DNA of 64,000 nt, taken from positions 1 to 64,000 of IMG/VR virus record IMGVR_UViG_2788500332_000006. The stretch is one strand, 5' to 3'. The DNA is from a virus (Duplodnaviria > Caudoviricetes). The translations under genes were made by a program, and so were the position numbers. Shown here one piece after another: positions 25,781 through 58,330 of the stretch (its first letter is position 1; each line of letters opens with the position of its first letter). The notes under the pieces are model-generated. The model was not told the DNA's origin. It worked only from the letters and a program-made list of their open reading frames with translations, and did no database searches.

Positions 25781-27840
25781 CACCAAATGCTCCCGCGGTT
25801 GTTGCCCCAGATGGAGCCCTGGTTTCCTCCCGGCGCCGAGCTACTCCCGCTAGACGGGCCTTGCGGCGCTGGTGGTGGAGGGGCGGCGGCTCGCTGGCGC
25901 TGCGGCGGCCCTTCGCGAAGACGGGATAGGCCGAGGAACGAAGCGATGGCAGCCTGCATCGCCTCGACGTCCAGGAAGTGGTTCTCCTTTGAGCGTTGAA
26001 CCCACCTCACCTTTCCGCCGGGGGCGACGATGCGCGCCTCGCTGACGATCTGCTTGCAGTAGTCGTCGGAGATATCCTCCGGCAGATACCAAGCACCCGC
26101 GGCTGCTTCCCACCTGATGCGCTGCTGCACCCACGACTTCCAGTGATCGGTGTCGAGGCGGATCAGCTCGAGCCCGTTCTTGATCTCCTTCCCGCCAATG
26201 ATCACGTCGATCTGGCTCGGAGTGATCGGCTTGCGGAGCGGAATCGACGATCCCTTGGTGGCTCGCACGTTGTGGAAGTGCTGCCTCGCGAACTCGTAGA
26301 CGCGGTGCTCCGGCACGAGAAACTTCTTGCCGGGGCGAAAGCCGGAGTCGACGAAGCACATCCTGATCGGCATGCCGTCGTAGGTGTCCGACACCATCTC
26401 GCCGAGAAGCCGCCAGACCTCTTTGCCCTCTGTCGCGCCGAAGACATCTTCGGCCTCAAGGAGCCAGGAGGTGCCGCCGGCACCCCACCCGCGTCGGCCG
26501 ACCACCAGCCTGTCCTGCTGGACGTCGACGGTCATGGTCTGGACGCGGACTCCGTCGGGCGTTTCACCAAACCGGTACGCGTCGACGCACTTCTTGACCT
26601 CGGCCCACGCCGGCACGTTGCCCGAGCCCGGCGCGTAGAGCTCGCCGAAACCGGCGTTCTTGACCGTCTGGACCTCGTTCTGGTCTCCCGACCGAACCGC
26701 CTCCACATAGCGGGCGGCACGCTCGCCCCATGTGACGAAGGGCGATGCGAGGCCGGAAATCCAGTAGCTCAACGTCCAACTATCAGGCGGAGTGCCGTGC
26801 TTCGTCCCGTCGGGGTCGATCTTCTGCCCGGGCGCGACAAAGTCTCCCTTGGAGTTCATCCACTCCTTGTTGGACATGTTGGTGCCCGGCCGGACCTCAT
26901 CTTCGTAGATGGCGGTCCCGCACCGCGGGCAGGCCAAATGCGCCGTGTTCTTCGCCATTGACGAGGTGGACGGAAGCTCCCGCCCGCTCTCGTCCTTGGG
27001 CTTGTCCCAGGCGAGACAGGTAAACCTCGGGACGAAATACTCTTCGCAGTGCGGACAGGGCCACGCCCAGTGGTAGCGCGTCCCCGACAGCCAGAGGCGC
27101 CAGATCGTCGACTTGACCTCTTCCGGGTCGGAGTCGGCCCAGAATTCCAGGCCGCTCTCCTGGTCGAGCTCCACCTCGGCCGGCCCGACGGATGGGGTCG
27201 ACGTGATCATGTGGACGAAATCCGGATAGCTGTCGCCACGGGCATCGACCAGCGTGATCGGACTGCCCTGGTTACGGACATTCGCCATCAGCTCGTCGGC
27301 TTCATCCGTGCAGGCGAGACCGAATGGATCGGACTTCAGTGCGCCGGAGCTGCCGCCGTGCGCCAGGCGGAGCGGCACGCCGTTGATCGTCTTGCGCGTC
27401 TTCTTCTGCCGGCTCGCCGGCGCGCACAGCCCGCGCAACGGCGTGTTGTCCATCAGGTCCTGGACGCGCGGCTCGAGCTGCTCCGTCAGGAACTGGCGCG
27501 ACGGGCCGACATAGATGATCGGCACCGCCGACGAGTACAGCCGCTCGGCGATCAGATCGAGGATGGACTCGGTCTTGCCGGACTGCGCCGACACCACCAC
27601 CACGATGCGCTTATGGGTGCGTGCGTGCGCCGCCATCACCGGTGCGATCATGTAGGGGGTCAGGTAGGGGTTTCTTGGCCCGGGGTGTCCGGAACTGTCA
27701 GGGTACTTTCGGTTCTTTGCCCACTCAGGCGGCGTCGTCCTCGGCCGTGGCTTCAGGATCTTCGCGACCCGTTTCAAGACGATTTCTCGCTTTGGCGAGA
27801 AGATCGCAGAGCCGGAGGCGCTCTTCGTCGAAGATGTCAT
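25780..27840 (-). CDS. Terminase large subunit (lambda GpA family); start approximate
   Basis: TPYM, SAQSGKT, DEAD, STP, CPHC/CPRC, VDVQ, NHFLD. Confidence 0.93.
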   Translation of the reverse strand: MTSSTKSASGSAIFSPKREIVLKRVAKILKPRPRTTPPEWAKNRKYPDSSGHPGPRNPYLTPYMIAPVMAAHARTHKRIVVVVSAQSGKTESILDLIAERLYSSAVPIIYVGPSRQFLTEQLEPRVQDLMDNTPLRGLCAPASRQKKTRKTINGVPLRLAHGGSSGALKSDPFGLACTDEADELMANVRNQGSPITLVDARGDSYPDFVHMITSTPSVGPAEVELDQESGLEFWADSDPEEVKSTIWRLWLSGTRYHWAWPCPHCEEYFVPRFTCLAWDKPKDESGRELPSTSSMAKNTAHLACPRCGTAIYEDEVRPGTNMSNKEWMNSKGDFVAPGQKIDPDGTKHGTPPDSWTLSYWISGLASPFVTWGERAARYVEAVRSGDQNEVQTVKNAGFGELYAPGSGNVPAWAEVKKCVDAYRFGETPDGVRVQTMTVDVQQDRLVVGRRGWGAGGTSWLLEAEDVFGATEGKEVWRLLGEMVSDTYDGMPIRMCFVDSGFRPGKKFLVPEHRVYEFARQHFHNVRATKGSSIPLRKPITPSQIDVIIGGKEIKNGLELIRLDTDHWKSWVQQRIRWEAAAGAWYLPEDISDDYCKQIVSEARIVAPGGKVRWVQRSKENHFLDVEAMQAAIASFLGLSRLREGPPQRQRAAAPPPPAPQGPSSGSSSAPGGNQGSIWGNNRGSIW

Positions 27841-28249
27841 CGAGACGCCGCCTCTCCCTCGGAACACTGGTGATACGCGCCGGCAGACCGTTGAGGCTGG
27901 AGACGTAAATGCCGGTCTGCTCGTCGAAGATGCCAAGCGCCTCATCGAGGTCGATCGCCGTCCGATCGCGCAGAGCGCGAGCTTGACGGATGTCGGCGAT
28001 CTTCTCCTCGCGGAGCTTGTCCATGCTGGTCGTGCCGGTCTTCTTCTCGGCCCCCTCCTTCAGGAAGGCGATGTAGGCCTGAACCGTCGAACTGAGCGGC
28101 CACTTGCCGCGAGCCAGCGGCACGAGTGTCCCGTCCTTGGCGAGAAGCTGGAGCCAGCGCTCAGTGATGCCGAGGTGACGTGCCATTGCCGTGGTCGACA
28201 CCAACAGATCGCTGACGTCGGTCAGCACCGGGATCGCCTTCCTCGCCAT
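27725..28249 (-). CDS. Terminase small subunit (Nu1-like wHTH)
   Basis: MARHLGITERWLQ.L.KDG...G.W.L..TVQAYI; overlaps TerL. Confidence 0.88.
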   Translation of the reverse strand: MARKAIPVLTDVSDLLVSTTAMARHLGITERWLQLLAKDGTLVPLARGKWPLSSTVQAYIAFLKEGAEKKTGTTSMDKLREEKIADIRQARALRDRTAIDLDEALGIFDEQTGIYVSSLNGLPARITSVPRERRRLDDIFDEERLRLCDLLAKARNRLETGREDPEATAEDDAA

Positions 28250-28947
28250 CACCACCTCGTCAGCTTGTCGATGCGCTTCAGCACCGCCCTCTCAAGGAGG
28301 ACCGGCCCGTTGAGGAAGAAGGCCTCCGCGGATTCGTCCTCCGGGATTTCCTTCATCAGCGACGGGCCGTAGAGCCGGCGGAGCTTGCCGTACTTGACAC
28401 CGGAAGACGCGAACTTGCCGTCGGCGCCGCGCGGCTGGTCGGGCTTGCGGCCGAAGGTCCAGAAGATCTTCGGCGCATGCGTTGAGGTACCTTCGCTCGG
28501 CGGCCGGAACGCGTAGAAGTCGCCGTTGGCCTCGAACGATCGCTTGAAGATGCGCGGCCGATTCCAGACGCCCGACTGGACGGTGCCCTTGTCGGTGTCG
28601 ATGCGGCCCTTGTTGAATTTCCTGGCGGTGCGGGTGCCGGCGCCAACCGATCGCAGGCCCTTGTACTTGTCCGCGTCCGTGCCGCCCTTCACGCCGAAGA
28701 TGTCGTACGCGAGCAACGCACGCCGCGGAATGCCACGCGTTCCGGCGACCACATAGCCCTGATAGTTGCCAGCCTTCAGCGCCATCTGCTTGGTGACGGC
28801 CTTCTGGACGATCGTCTTGGTCTTGCGGCCAGCGTCGACGACACCGTTGAAGAGTTCCGTCCGGCCGGACGAGGCGAACAGCCGTTCAAGGCTGCTCCGG
28901 GCGATCGAAACCACCTTCACGTCCTTGGAGACCGTGATGACGCGCAA
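28249..28947 (-). CDS. Basic hypothetical protein, possibly gpZ-like tail completion
   Basis: TTG start with GGAG RBS; L.RLYGPS..KE motif. Confidence 0.55.
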   Translation of the reverse strand: MRVITVSKDVKVVSIARSSLERLFASSGRTELFNGVVDAGRKTKTIVQKAVTKQMALKAGNYQGYVVAGTRGIPRRALLAYDIFGVKGGTDADKYKGLRSVGAGTRTARKFNKGRIDTDKGTVQSGVWNRPRIFKRSFEANGDFYAFRPPSEGTSTHAPKIFWTFGRKPDQPRGADGKFASSGVKYGKLRRLYGPSLMKEIPEDESAEAFFLNGPVLLERAVLKRIDKLTRW

Positions 28948-29060: not shown

Positions 29061-29354
29061 TCAGGTGTCGATGCCTTCGGGGTGCTCCGCCGTGTGGATC
29101 TTGAAGTTCTTGACGTCGCGATAGTCCCGGCCGAGCTCCAGCTCTGCGCAGCCCGACCTTGGCGTATCTCGCACGATGTCCATGGCCGCATCGAATGAGC
29201 CGAACACGCCGGAGATCCCCAGCTTGTCTTCATCGTCCAGGCGAACGACGATCCAGATCGATCCGCTTTCCATCGTCGTCGCTCCTATCCGCCAGTCGAG
29301 GCACAACGCCTGGAATTCAACCAATGGATGCTGTTTTGCCGCCTTTGGCGCCAT
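29061..29354 (-). CDS. Hypothetical protein between cos and terminase
   Basis: 97 aa ORF in late-operon orientation. Confidence 0.5.
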   Translation of the reverse strand: MAPKAAKQHPLVEFQALCLDWRIGATTMESGSIWIVVRLDDEDKLGISGVFGSFDAAMDIVRDTPRSGCAELELGRDYRDVKNFKIHTAEHPEGIDT

Positions 29355-29460
29355 ACGGGCGGCGTCGGCACAACCGCAAGGCAGTGATTTGCAGGCGGCT
29401 TCAAATGGCGCCCGTGTCGGCTTTCCAACGCGAATCCGAACCCTGAAATCGAAATGCTCG

Positions 29461-29521
29461 AAATCGCGAAAATCCTGCGCTGCCGCCGACCCGCGGCCGG
29501 TGCTGCACCTGCGAAGGACCC
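29461..29521 (-). other. Lambda-like cos site: cosQ GGGTCCT (29515-29521), predicted 12-nt cohesive end GGTCGGCGGCAG (29480-29491)
   Basis: Aligns by eye with lambda cosQ-23 bp-GGGCGGCGACCT-CGCGGGTTTTCGCTATTT; upstream of a lambda-type terminase. Confidence 0.75.
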
Positions 29522-30171
29522 TACCCGGGGGGAGGGGTGCATCAGACTGGTTTCATTGGCTTTTCTCGGTTCGTTGCAGCGCGTCGCCGGGATTGCGGCA
29601 TTGCAGCGCGCCGGGCGGGGTGGTCGGGCCGGCGGCGGGACGCGTGCCGATAGGGCGGATAGCCCCGCCTGGCGCTCACTGGCGCCCGGCCCTTGCCTCT
29701 CCCCCTCCGGGGCACGTTGGTGCGTGCTGCCTTGCCGCCGGTCATGCGAGGGCATAAGACGGGGCTCGGGCCGTTGCCGGCCGGCGTCTGGTGCGTGGCG
29801 ATGGACGGGGGAGGATCGGCGTACGTGTCGCCTCTGAAGGGCGGGGTGACTCGCGGCCGGCCACGTGTCAAGCGCCTATCTCACCCCCTGCCCGTTCGCT
29901 CTATCGGCGGCAGGCTTATACGATACGTAGTAACCACTCGGTCGCGTCGCTTCGAAATGCCGACGGAATTCCGTGCCCCAAAAAAGGTAGGGAATCAGCC
30001 AGCGACGTATTCATAAATCACTGACATTACACGATTTTTCATGACATTCCGGTTTGCGAGAAAGGCCAAAAAGGCAGGGCGAAGTTCGCTAGATGGACGA
30101 GGTTTGGAGATTTGAAAATCATTATATTTCAGATTGTTATCATTTTTCTGGCCGGAAAACGAAAAATCAGC

Positions 30172-30200
30172 TTGTGATTTGTACGCTATGTACAAATATT
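30172..30200 (+). promoter_or_regulatory. Rightward promoter (TTGTGA-17-AATATT) overlapped by operator TTTGTAC-N5-GTACAAA
   Basis: Perfect 7-bp inverted arms 30178-30196 matching the operators at the cI/cro switch. Confidence 0.75.
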
Positions 30201-30204
30201 AGAG

Positions 30205-30660
30205 CCAACGGGACGCGAGACGGACCGGGGCGGCGGAAACGCCGGGTTCATTGAAATCGGTGGATTTTGGTCGGATCAGGCCAGTGGTTACCGCGATGAT
30301 CGAAAGGTCAAGTCGGTGGATTGCAGGCAGTGATTCGGGCAGGGTCCGGACCGAATATAGGGCGACCAAGGCCAAGCGGCCGGCACGACAAAGCCGGCAG
30401 GGGCAGGCAAAGGGAAGGGTCTCATGCTGGCGAGCCCATAAAGGACCAGCATCATCGAGGGTCTAGGCCGAAAGGCGCGGGAACGTAGATGGCAGCACAT
30501 CAGATGCACGCTTAGACCCACAACCGAGACAGGCAAGGGCAAGCGACAATCGAAAACCAACTTTGGAATTCGACGGCTTGGATTGACCGAAGCGCCGACA
30601 GGCACGCGGCCGGTTCAAGCCAGACAGAAGGGCGCCGGGCGGCAACGCTCGGCGCCTTTC
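30205..30660 (+). ncRNA. Candidate large structured non-coding/leader RNA
   Basis: No convincing ORF; many nested helices with G-U pairs and GNRA loops; ends in a 15-bp hairpin. Confidence 0.6.
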
Positions 30661-30719
30661 ACATTCCAGCGCCAGCCGGCGGCATCCCTGCCGGCTCGCC
30701 TTGGAATGGAGCTGCAAGC

Positions 30720-30842
30720 ATGCACGAACCCCTTGGTTATCTCGCTTTCAACATGGCCGGCCTCGGCCTCATCGCGGTCATCGCGACCGACAACCCCGTC
30801 TCGGAAATCATCCGGGCGGCAATCGCTATCTACCTGATGTGA
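30720..30842 (+). CDS. 40-aa hydrophobic peptide
   Basis: GGAG RBS; MHEPLGYLAFNMAGLGLIAVIATDNPVSEIIRAAIAIYLM. Confidence 0.5.
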   Translation: MHEPLGYLAFNMAGLGLIAVIATDNPVSEIIRAAIAIYLM

Positions 30843-30851
30843 GGGAAAACC

Positions 30852-31052
30852 ATGACCACGGATCGCGCCACCGCTCTTGGCTACACCGAAGCCGTTACCG
30901 CCGAAAACGCCGCCTATGTGCTCACCCTGATGGTTCAGCCGGGCACCGACCTTGAAGGCCAGTTCAAGGCTTGGGACTGCGACGAACAGGAGTTCATCAT
31001 GGTCTCGGGCTGGTCATTCGACATCTACCCGACTGCCGACCTCGCCGCCTGA
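30852..31052 (+). CDS. Hypothetical acidic protein
   Basis: GAGGG RBS, phage-like codon usage. Confidence 0.8.
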   Translation: MTTDRATALGYTEAVTAENAAYVLTLMVQPGTDLEGQFKAWDCDEQEFIMVSGWSFDIYPTADLAA

Positions 31053-31268: not shown

Positions 31269-31380
31269 CGCAAGGGGGCTCCGGGCCGAAAGGCTCGGAG
31301 CTTCCCTCAAGCTAGGCGTCTTCGGGCCGACGTGCAAGGCCCGCCCCCCGGCAATCATGCCACCTATGGAGACCTTCATC

Positions 31381-31950
31381 ATGGCTGCTTTCCCGATCCT
31401 CACCGGTTCCGCCCTCAAGTCCGCCATCGCCGGCCGCGCCAAGGCCGCCGCCAGCTTCACCGAACGCGAGCATCAGCTCGCCGCGTCGTGCCTCATGCAC
31501 GTCGAGCAGCATTCGTGCCCGTCGCACCTCAATGCGCTCTATCAGGCCACGCCGACCAACTATCGCGCCGGCCTGGTGTCGTGGTCCGTCGCGTTCGGTC
31601 GCGTCACCTTCGACAAGGACACCGGCGCGTTCGCCTACGCCAAGGGCAAGAAGACGGACGTGGATGGCATGCTCGCCGTCGCGCCGGCCAACTTCGAGAA
31701 GCAGAGCAAGACCACCCGCACCGAGAAGGAATTCGACGTCGCCGCCTACCTCGCGAAGGTGGTCGACACCCTCACGAACAAGGACGCCGACCCGCGCATC
31801 CTGCAGGCTGTCAAGGGCGCCCTGAACCTCGCCAAGATGCCGGCGCCGGCCAAGAAGGCGGAGAAGGCGGAGAAGCCCGCCAAGCCGGCTGCCGCCAAGG
31901 CGCCGAAGGTCGCCGATCAGGCCTCGGCTTCCGACCTGTTCGCCGCCTGA
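31381..31950 (+). CDS. Conserved phage early hypothetical protein with Lys/Ala-rich tail
   Basis: GGAG RBS, strongly biased codons, terminator 31971-31998. Confidence 0.85.
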   Translation: MAAFPILTGSALKSAIAGRAKAAASFTEREHQLAASCLMHVEQHSCPSHLNALYQATPTNYRAGLVSWSVAFGRVTFDKDTGAFAYAKGKKTDVDGMLAVAPANFEKQSKTTRTEKEFDVAAYLAKVVDTLTNKDADPRILQAVKGALNLAKMPAPAKKAEKAEKPAKPAAAKAPKVADQASASDLFAA

Positions 31951-44697: not shown

Positions 44698-44810
44698 ACC
44701 AAGAGCGATCGGCGTGATCTTCCCATTTCCCTAGCAGCACAACATCTCCAGGCCGGGCCACGCAGCCCGGCCTTTTCTTTTCCCCCAATCATGGGCTCAT
44801 GGAGACCGCG

Positions 44811-57180: not shown

Positions 57181-57187
57181 GCGCCAG

Positions 57188-57241
57188 TTTGTACACTGCG
57201 TATAAATCCGCCGCAACCCCTCTTCCTACGCCGCGTACTAA
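57188..57241. promoter_or_regulatory. OR-like region with two operators and divergent cro/cI promoters
   Basis: TTTGTAC-ACTGC-GTATAAA (57188-57206) and TTCCTAC-GCCGC-GTACTAA (57223-57241). Confidence 0.75.
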
Positions 57242-57263: not shown

Positions 57264-57899
57264 ATGAAAAATGTTATCGACGAGAGAACCCGTCTCGAGC
57301 GGGCGCGCCGCCTCAAGGAGGCGCGGATCAAGGCCTATGGCGATAATCTCAGCGAGATGTACCGGCAGGTCCGATTGCCGGTAACCCAGAGCGCTTATAC
57401 CCATCACGAGAGCGGTCGGCGCGCCTATGACTACGACCTGGCGCTCGCTTACGCGGATCTCTTTGGAGTGACCGCCGAGCACCTTTACAACGGGCCTGAC
57501 GCAACGAACGGACATGGGATTCAGATCCCCGTCGTATCCATGGTCACCGCCGGCATGCTGCAATTCCGCGAAGGCGTCGAAAAGAAGGACGTCATCCGGA
57601 CCATAACCCTCAGTGGACTCCCCGACGGGGAATGGATCGGGCTGATCGTCGACGGCGATTCCATGAATCGGATCGCGCCGCCTAACTCCATCATCGCGGT
57701 GAACAGACGCGACAAGACGCTGCTGAATGACAAATTCTACGTCTTCGTCAATAGCTTAAGCGAATCCACGTTCAAAAAGTTTAGAAAAAGCCCGCCCCGG
57801 ATGACGCCCTACTCGACGAATCCTGACCATATGTCGATTCCTATGTCGGACGATATGCAGGTCTTCGGGCGAGTCAAAGTCGTCATCACAGAACTCTAG
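57264..57899 (+). CDS. cI: CI-like repressor (HTH + S24 peptidase)
   Basis: RLKEAR..., Y..HESG.R, FGV..E.L; V.GDSM and FKK catalytic motifs; AG cleavage site. Confidence 0.9.
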   Translation: MKNVIDERTRLERARRLKEARIKAYGDNLSEMYRQVRLPVTQSAYTHHESGRRAYDYDLALAYADLFGVTAEHLYNGPDATNGHGIQIPVVSMVTAGMLQFREGVEKKDVIRTITLSGLPDGEWIGLIVDGDSMNRIAPPNSIIAVNRRDKTLLNDKFYVFVNSLSESTFKKFRKSPPRMTPYSTNPDHMSIPMSDDMQVFGRVKVVITEL

Positions 57900-58220
57900 G
57901 ATTCAGAGAGGGAATCCTTCCTCATGCTCGGTGGTGAGCCCTGAGCCCGGACATAGGAGGACTAAGCCCTGTGCCCGAGAGCATCCAGGGTTAGCCCCTA
58001 TGCCGGATGACATGCTCGGCGGAGCCGCCCGTCACCCATCCCCGACGTTCGACACCAGCGACGTCAGTTGTCCGCACTTTTTCGTCGCCTCTGGCAAGGC
58101 CACGGCAGGAACCCCTTCGGACTTTCGGAGTGGGGCTTCTATCTTCCTGCGCCCGATGGTATAGAAAAGACCTCTGCAAAGAGGTGAGAGCGCCACCGTC
58201 TCTACCGACCGCTCTCTTCC

Positions 58221-58250
58221 AAAGCCCCAGGTTCCCGCCTGGGGCTTTTC
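58221..58250. terminator. Bidirectional intrinsic terminator-like hairpin
   Basis: AAAGCCCCAGG/CCTGGGGCTTTT. Confidence 0.7.
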
Positions 58251-58277: not shown

Positions 58278-58330
58278 TCAATACGCAGTGTACGAATCCG
58301 CTTGACGCTGATTTGTACACAGCGTACTAA
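58278..58330 (+). promoter_or_regulatory. OL/PL-like promoter (TTGACG-17-TACTAA) with two operators
   Basis: TCAATAC-GCAGT-GTACGAA (58278-58296) and TTTGTAC-ACAGC-GTACTAA (58312-58330). Confidence 0.8.

Follow-up and report, generated by a model that had tools for sequence, protein, structure and literature searches.

What is specified by the roughly 450 nucleotides (nt) that lie directly behind an operator-bearing promoter in the Caudoviricetes provirus IMGVR_UViG_2788500332_000006, between a block of lambda-type packaging genes and a run of small genes? We analysed the first 64 kb of this 96,978-base IMG/VR provirus record (the window), in which the region occupies positions 30,205 to 30,660. 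An initial annotation, made from the letters alone, saw no credible open reading frame (ORF) there and eleven helices, and proposed either a stand-alone large phage non-coding RNA (ncRNA) or a cis-acting antitermination RNA similar to HK022 put. Comparison of the window with loci of relatives, designated by L-numbers (L002 and so on), establishes that positions 30207-30663 of the + strand specify a conserved, structured, non-coding RNA of ~455 nt that belongs to a new family. As to its role, we give an even chance to its being a cis-acting Nus-factor (boxA) anti-termination leader that is not put-like and would be the first product of the early operon.

No coding frame was found across 29355-30719 by a frame test based on G+C content at third codon positions (GC3). 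Moreover, indels of 1-2 nt break every ORF in the relatives (in L013, +1 after 30348, +2 after 30508 and -1 at 30600; in L003, -1 at 30240, +1 after 30348 and -1 at 30399), which excludes coding, as the initial annotation had supposed. Its expectation that the folding would work on the + strand only was also borne out. The minimum free energy (MFE) of 30205-30660 on this strand is -198 kcal/mol (z -6.48), a value that none of 100 dinucleotide shuffles equalled, compared with a z of -1.23 for the reverse complement. The RNA is composed of 35.5% G, 25.8% A, 25.8% C and 13% U; the downstream coding strand is C-rich instead. Relatives carrying the element in IMG/VR are L002 (identical to NCBI LUYP01000036, L013) and L003, and near-identical copies are present in several Logan assemblies. 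A stretch of assembly GCA_900095415.1 matches the window sequence exactly. Identity between L003 and the window is ~55% in the promoter region and jumps to ~94% from ~30206 through the ATG at 30720, exceeding that of the neighbouring proteins.

Compensation was assessed by scoring the 166 pairs of the MFE structure, computed from the window only, in L002 and L003. Pairing was unchanged in 290 cells, kept after a one-sided change in 20, kept after a double change in 6 and broken in 16. The six double changes compare with a mean of 0.6 when partners were randomly reassigned (maximum 8 in 2000 shuffles), and column variability in the two relatives is 11% at paired and 20% at unpaired positions.

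Seven to eight of the eleven helices proposed initially are supported by, or consistent with, the substitutions in relatives, and three are contradicted by them (Table 1). Covariation is strong in GCCGGC/GCCGGC (hairpin Hy). The GGCG-GAAA-CGCC hairpin is supported or consistent, as is TGATC-GAAA-GGTCA, which forms the apex of a long hairpin, Domain I (UGAUC-GAAA-GGUCA, 30297-30310; the invariant GUGGAUUG follows at 30316-30323). By manual reading this apical hairpin covaries across lineages, and its loop is GUGA in L003, still a GNRA. A compensatory change also supports the terminal 15-bp GCAA hairpin. The pairing GGGTCTAGG/CTTAGACCC is consistent but invariant, hence without covariation support, and the 11-bp stem GGCTTGGATTG/CGGTTCAAGCC is consistent through one-sided, G-U-compatible changes only; indeed, the hairpins at 30550-30621 as a whole show only wobble-compatible changes in L002 and L003. 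The first of these two, GGGUCUAGG/CUUAGACCC in the RNA, gives duplex z scores between -3.6 and -6.2 in subfamily I, where it is invariant, and is not clearly kept in distant members; within the segment that it encloses, A30489-U30500 becomes G-C in L002.

The three contradicted helices resolve into other structures. In TTGGTCG/CGACCAA, T30268C and T30271C give C.A mismatches in both relatives, and the bases pair instead within Domain I, where 30268:30341 changes from U-A to C-G. ATTCGG/CCGAAT is also broken in both relatives, and its bases belong to the same hairpin. In GTCTC/GAGAC, C30421U is compensated in L003 by G30434A, which supports a local hairpin that holds the 5′ strand of ATGCTGG/CCAGCAT as its loop; that is, the two helices (PK1 and PK2, respectively) form an H-type pseudoknot, a fold absent from the initial list. 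The PK1 pair C30421-G30434 is thereby U-A in L003, and distant members alternate between CGUGC/GUACG and CGCGC/GUGCG. In PK2, which the initial annotation had listed as a simple helix, U30428-A30448 becomes C-G in both L002 and L003, and the forms found across the family, in a manually set register, are AUGCUGG/CCAGCAU, AUGCCGG/CCGGCAU, GCAAG/CUUGC(U) and ACAGG/CCUGU.

Table 1. Coordinates of the RNA, its promoter and the surrounding features in the window (TSS, transcription start site; SD, Shine-Dalgarno sequence)
Feature	Position	Strand	Basis or remarks
Predicted early promoter, TTGTGA-17 nt-AATATT	30172..30202	+	sequence
Perfect palindromic operator, TTTGTAC-GCTAT-GTACAAA, in promoter spacer	30178-30196
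Predicted 5′ end and first small hairpin	30207..30230	+	TSS placed from the -10 element; conservation with L003 starts sharply at ~30206
Small GC hairpin with GAAA loop, directly 5′ of boxA (position of boxB in rrn)	30231..30244	+	MFE
boxA-like element GGTTCATTGAAAT	30245..30257	+	family consensus GGTTCTTTGAAAA
Domain I, long irregular hairpin	30257..30353	+	MFE, alifold; compensatory changes 30258:30353, 30268:30341, 30284:30324
Conserved junction AUAGGGCGACCAAGG	30357..30371	+	GGC 30361-30363 invariant in 9 lineages; nhmmer alignment blocks
Hairpin Hy, GCCGGC/GCCGGC, conserved loop ACGACAAA	30379..30398	+	5/6 pairs compensatory, 94% of cells paired
H-type pseudoknot	30418..30452	+	PK1, C30421-C30423:G30432-G30434 plus flanking G-C; PK2, A30424-G30430 (PK1 loop):C30446-U30452
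Helix GGGUCUAGG/CUUAGACCC	30459..30519	+	encloses GAAA-loop hairpin 30467-30476 and GAUG/CAUC hairpin 30488-30501
Most conserved core CCCACAACCGAGACAGGCAAGGGCAAGCGACAA	30517..30549	+	ACCGA 30523-30527 and ACAGGC 30529-30534 invariant in 9 lineages
Two subfamily-specific hairpins	30550..30621	+	UCGAA..UUCGA 30550-30573; 11-bp stem with three G-U pairs, 30575-30621
Terminator-like 15-bp GCAA-loop hairpin, then UUUCACAUU	30627..30665	+	G30637-C30650 becomes A-U in L003
Last hairpin CAUUCCA..UGGAAUG, SD and start codon	30662..30722	+	SD GGAG 30708-30711; ATG 30720
Lambda-type packaging and head genes: terS, gpA-type terL, lambda-family portal, protease-capsid fusion	left of RNA; terS 27725-28255	-
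Two further genes without assigned function, after the packaging genes	28249-28947 (232 aa), 29061-29354
Run of small genes, right of RNA	30720 (40 aa), 30852 (66 aa), 31357/31381 (phrog_1448 family), onward	+
Pre-start motif	31350, 32055, 32605, 34081, 34804, 38625, 39997, 43862, 44784, 45476

To see how far the family extends, related proviruses were collected with the 232-amino-acid (aa) cos-proximal protein as the query, first as a single sequence and then as an alignment. With a three-sequence profile, nhmmer located diverged homologues at the syntenic place and on the corresponding strand in L029, L032, L033 and L034 (E 5e-5 to 3e-3). L030 shares the motifs, and L066 was added by a boxA-based pattern scan (nhmmer E 1e-59). 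The family comprises about nine lineages. In each of them the RNA adjoins the 232-aa gene, its promoter contains a palindromic operator, and one or two terminator hairpins form its 3′ end. The RNA start, AACGG..CGC, recurs in L029. The shared blocks are the boxA-like element, GUGGAUUG, GGGCRACC, a hairpin with an AYGACAAA loop, GGGAAGG, the pseudoknot, GCAUC and the near-invariant CAACCGAnACAGGC (30521-30534 in the window). Across the nine lineages, 64 columns are invariant, and the helices between the blocks vary in sequence. Two modules can be distinguished: a 5′ module (small hairpin, boxA and long hairpin), present in all 13 related leaders examined, and a 3′ module (junction, AYGACAAA-loop hairpin, pseudoknot and CAACCGAnACAGGC), present in about nine lineages. 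Between the pseudoknot and the core, three members have an insertion of 100-190 nt that consists of several GNRA-capped hairpins (L030:3290-3480, L034:3620-3790 and L066:90-310, on the - strands). Large functional RNAs show this pattern of a constant core with a variable peripheral domain.

The covariation in Hy and the pseudoknot extends across this wider family. A covariance model, R1, was built from six distant members only (85 positions, Hy and PK1) and used to search 214 kb. It matched the window at 30372-30462 on the + strand (E 0.004), L002 (E 0.008) and L003 (E 0.039), and found nothing in L025, L027 or L028. Over Hy, PK1 and PK2, standard pairs fill 95% of cells, compared with 21-38% when the partners were slid, and 8 of the 16 pairs are changed on both sides; none of 500 shuffles reached any of these measures. 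The tool counts for the pseudoknot cover the distant members only, as the window rows are gaps in the pseudoknot columns, and include one spurious 21-nt row in PK1. The MAFFT alignment of all lineages mis-registers the pseudoknot, and the alignment to the covariance model leaves PK1 and the 5′ strand of PK2 of the window as an insertion; pseudoknot covariation across subfamilies therefore rests partly on manual register.

Searches of catalogues and collections gave no known counterpart. Rfam 15 yielded no hit at the gathering score in the window and nothing at E <= 0.5 in six relatives; a permissive search of 29900-31000 returned chance matches and a terminator look-alike, the 30627-30665 hairpin, which weakly matches the ctRNA_p42d terminator (E 0.02). 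Full-text literature searches retrieved no description of such an RNA. Exact-pattern scans of genome and metagenome contigs gave chance matches only (L010, L011, L041-L058), and L009, L035, L040 and L064 were rejected as chance or partial matches.

The block that runs through all 13 leaders, with differing flanks and including four leaders that lack the 3′ core (L025-L028), is the boxA-like element, with the consensus GGTTCTTTGAAAA and variants such as GGTTCATTGAAAT in the window, GGATCTTTGAAAT in L002 and GGTTATTTGACAG in L034. The string singled out in the initial annotation is real, and its weight comes from this conservation across relatives. In every leader, it lies ~40 nt after the predicted start, directly 3′ of a small GC hairpin that varies among lineages in sequence and loop. 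The element is unpaired in the centroid structure and partly paired, over a long range, in the MFE structure. Its sequestration by the conserved block 30455-30467, suggested by alifold, was rejected as inconsistent across lineages (z +0.8 to -3.3).

The nearest named terminase relatives of the provirus are prophages on Pseudochrobactrum and Methylobacterium plasmids (~50% identity), an affiliation that weakly suggests a host in the Hyphomicrobiales. Ribosomal RNA operon (rrn) leaders were fetched from alphaproteobacterial PLSDB replicons with a probe for the 5′ end of 16S, and boxA was found 190-240 nt upstream of the probe start. In Hyphomicrobiales it reads GTTATTTGACAA (Agrobacterium), GTTTTTTGACAA (Ensifer), GATCTTTGACAA (Methylobacterium) and GTTCTTTGACAA (Nitratireductor), which gives the four-leader pattern G(T/A)T(C/A/T)TTTGACAA. 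The phage element differs from these four at essentially one position, which is N in the gamma-proteobacterial consensus GYTCTTTAANA (PMC5725501). In the rrn of Bacillus subtilis, a small hairpin is followed by the boxA AUGAUCUUUGAAA (PMC13753749). Positional conservation and the rrn match (see also PMC5725501, PMC13753749, PMC3177189) together suggest that the phage element is a host-type boxA. Beyond boxA, the leader has no similarity to the four fetched Hyphomicrobiales rrn leaders.

Some further features were noted around boxA. In all four rrn leaders (L059-L062), boxA extends as TTTGACAA(T/G)TGAATA, followed by ..GAGAAAGAGAA(G/A)C in Ensifer, Methylobacterium and Nitratireductor; the Agrobacterium sequence was covered up to ..GAAAGAGAA. 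About 27 nt further on, the Methylobacterium and Nitratireductor leaders contain GCGUGGRCGGC. The phage leaders carry GUGUGG / GGUGGAUU 60-75 nt after boxA, a block that may be boxC-like.

The leader heads a repressor-controlled early operon. The palindrome at 30178-30196 bears out the operator-bearing promoter noted initially directly upstream of the RNA; a strict consensus promoter scan did not call the promoter at 30172-30202. Only two GTAC-N5-GTAC sites occur in the 64-kb window (0.06 expected), one in the leader promoter and the other at 58315, in the spacer of a promoter adjoining the gene for an S24-peptidase cI-type repressor (57267-57899). More full or half copies of the TTTGTAC-N5-GTAC operator flank the repressor gene (57183-57215, 58278-58330), and a putatively structured region of ~350 nt downstream of it (57898-58249) has no similarity to the leader family. 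The promoter-operator layout is alike in L003, L028 and L029, and an operator-like palindrome is kept in the relatives' spacer. Between leader and first ORF, every lineage has one or two terminator-like hairpins, with good U-tracts in distant members, and the island of small genes downstream contains one clear intrinsic terminator on its + strand (44750-44773). Separately, L003 shares 92% identity with the window over a 53-nt block (CCGTGCCCCAAAAAAGGTAGGGAATCAGCC..., 29971-30023) that lies ~180-240 bp before the RNA starts and has diverged flanks. The more distant relatives lack this block, which might bind a protein or belong to a divergent (late?) promoter.

Together, these elements suggest how a cis-acting boxA leader could operate. 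In the lysogen, the cI-type repressor of the prophage would silence the early operon by binding the operator in the promoter spacer. Upon derepression, host NusB-NusE, which recognise about 8 nt of boxA, would bind this element as it emerges from RNA polymerase and nucleate an rrn-type Nus complex that would make the polymerase resistant to Rho on the long untranslated leader and could help it past the leader terminator or terminators and the 44750 terminator into the ~17-kb island. The compact, G-rich and C-poor fold may itself be a poor Rho substrate. The 3′ core could contribute put-like help, bind a factor, act as a sensor or be set free at the terminator as a product in its own right. If the cos site proposed ~700 bp to the left is correct and the lambda rule that the last-packaged end enters first applies, the RNA would be the first transcript from incoming DNA.

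Several observations weigh against this reading. The leaders of L025-L028 keep boxA and the terminators and lack the 3′ core, which means that the boxA mechanism leaves the large core unexplained and that the core must add something else. The window boxA, GTTCATTGAAA, has one extra deviation, an A for the consensus U (TTCATTGA), and in the window alone the boxA 9-mer is not above chance (3 matches, 4.8 expected). The second operator-controlled promoter (58300) runs directly into its gene without a leader. Complexes of the rrn type are best known for acting against Rho and affect intrinsic terminators only modestly. Start site, 3′ end and read-through of the transcript are all predictions. The family so far numbers about nine lineages, the window-specific helices depend largely on three closely related ones, and the global fold beyond the helices in Table 1 is tentative.

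We consider it possible, with more doubt than belief, that the 3′ core is active in itself and represents a hitherto undescribed class of large functional phage RNA, with boxA serving only for its transcription. Such a core might be a giant put-like RNA acting directly on RNA polymerase, or an RNA that sequesters a protein or is catalytic and is the very first to be made upon infection or induction. Related to this is the first option of the initial annotation, a stand-alone, trans-acting early ncRNA, which we think unlikely. Most transcripts would stop at 30627-30665 and release a stable RNA of ~455 nt, whose pseudoknot and CAACCGAnACAGGC core would bind another RNA or a protein of host or phage, for example in takeover or counter-defence, with boxA giving protection from Rho as in rRNA. 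A terminator-like hairpin with a compensatory change does end the element, distant members have tandem, stronger terminators, and the conserved single-stranded blocks between variable helices, together with the 100-190-nt inserted domains, are typical of large functional RNAs; that the core is dispensable in leaders that keep boxA also suggests a separate function. However, the rest of the 64-kb window offers no complementary target of at least 15 nt (best E 0.1), no partner was identified and the downstream genes have no evident promoter of their own, which would make some read-through necessary. The terminators between leader and first ORF fit cis-acting and stand-alone readings alike. Both options of the initial annotation stay in play: the conserved structured RNA is confirmed, and antitermination is strengthened and shifted from a put-like element to a host-type boxA behind a small hairpin. 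Of the refuting outcomes named in that annotation, a lack of covariation among homologues and a folding energy no better than that of shuffles were both contradicted by the results.

A sensor-type attenuator, riboswitch-like or protein-responsive, in which a ligand or protein bound by the core decides whether the terminator forms and so times expression of the island, is decidedly improbable in our judgement. The order of promoter, pseudoknotted core, terminator or terminators and genes in all core-bearing lineages, and the near-invariant unpaired nucleotides, would suit it, but in the window 80-110 nt of lineage-specific hairpins part the core from the terminator, no conserved alternative pairing was found, the duplex between boxA and the conserved block is inconsistent, and no Rfam riboswitch or T-box was matched even at E 0.5-10. 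A T-box-like string, GUGGUUACCGCG, is not conserved and lacks Rfam support. The proximity of the proposed cos site (~700 bp) raises the further thought of a DNA-level feature, such as a packaging or replication site, or of a GC-rich spacer that folds by chance. Against this, the strand-specific folding relies on G-U pairs, RNA pairing is maintained by compensatory changes, conservation begins at the predicted TSS rather than at cos, and homologues keep their position and orientation relative to the promoter; we regard this explanation as very remote. Two other ideas were discarded: an antisense or immunity RNA (as P4 CI or P1 c4), for which complementarity in the window is not beyond chance, and a CsrA sponge, for which ~13 GGA motifs (counted by hand) compare with ~15 expected from composition.

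If the RNA is a boxA leader, its closest counterpart is the rrn leader (boxB-boxA-boxC, acting with NusA/B/E/G and SuhB), with which it shares a promoter-proximal position, a hairpin followed by a boxA of the host clade and a long, structured, untranslated transcript that would have to escape Rho. The order of hairpin and boxA is that of rrn and not that of lambda nut. Unlike the rrn leader, it is phage-borne, repressor-controlled and followed by ~400 nt of pseudoknotted RNA, intrinsic terminators and protein genes. With lambda nutL/nutR and N it has in common a boxA site that closely follows an early promoter under repressor control and precedes terminators and a long operon, whereas its hairpin lies 5′ of boxA and has varying loops (GAAA, ACAA, UCU, GUU and ACUU). 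An N-type boxB was rejected on these grounds, position and unconserved loop, and no N-like match was found in Pfam or PHROGs for the downstream proteins of 66, 197, 85 and 112 aa (the 40-aa peptide was not scanned).

HK022 put is likewise a cis-acting structured RNA right after an early promoter, and the present RNA could share its terminator bypass free of phage proteins. Put is ~70 nt long, consists of two hairpins, has no boxA and follows both early promoters; this description sets it apart from an RNA of ~455 nt that has boxA and follows one of two operator-controlled promoters. GOLLD and ROOL are similar in being several hundred nt long, prophage-borne, without assigned function and built of many GNRA hairpins and one or more pseudoknots. 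The RNA described here differs in having no Rfam match, a fixed operon-leader position with boxA and terminators, and a much narrower known distribution. Finally, P4 CI and P1/P7 c4 also derive from the leader of a phage early operon, but those RNAs pair with repeated targets in their own transcript, and the window holds no such complementarity; the c4-a1b1 family of Rfam matched on the wrong strand only (E 5.2).

The early island downstream of the leader spans ~17 kb and ~40 small genes of unassigned function. In the Pseudochrobactrum and Methylobacterium terminase relatives, the divergent island and the leader are both missing and the layout is co-linear. The region has no DNA match among INPHARED phages or PLSDB plasmids, and the neighbouring 232-aa protein has none in cultured phages. 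Directly 3′ of the RNA is a gene for a hydrophobic peptide of 40 aa (30720-30842), whose copies in L002 and L003 are 90-93% identical and differ conservatively; the peptide is confined to the window subfamily and falls in a single protein cluster in a collection of 5.8 billion sequences. A gene of the phrog_1448 family lies downstream of the leader in all lineages, the core-less ones included; in the window (31381-31950) it probably starts at ATG 31381 and not at 31357. All nine aligned homologues (from the window and L025-L034) terminate in Ala-Ala behind a Lys/Ala/Pro-rich tail. Because this tail resembles an ssrA-like ClpXP degron, the protein may be a short-lived early regulator. In its AF2 model (pLDDT, a per-residue confidence score, of 73), helices predominate and there is one small beta-hairpin; searches gave no Pfam family, PDB sequence match or significant PDB fold match, and Atlas gave only unnamed phage clusters.

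Ten sites in the window (Table 1) carry a motif before the start codon that consists of a C-run, a mini-hairpin of 3-4 bp with an AWYCA-type loop and ACC..AUGGAGA. The motif also precedes the phrog_1448 start in L029, L032 and L034, as GCCG-CUUA-UGGC, GCCA-AUUA-UGGC and CGCA-AUUA-UGCG. Its presence in distant relatives with altered, still paired stems points to conservation across phages with covarying stems.

To our knowledge, boxA-dependent anti-termination in phages is known essentially from the lambdoid N-nut systems of enterobacteria. Here, prophages probably of Hyphomicrobiales appear to use an rrn-type boxA without a recognisable N, joined to a large, covarying and uncatalogued RNA, in what we infer to be an rrn-like, N-independent variant of the lambda strategy. 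If this is true, N-nut and put would be joined by a third way to transcribe long early operons, and structured RNAs of >300 nt would gain a rare new member whose cis phenotype can be tested. The leader would also provide a handle on the switching-on of a 17-kb early block of ~40 genes with likely takeover or counter-defence functions.

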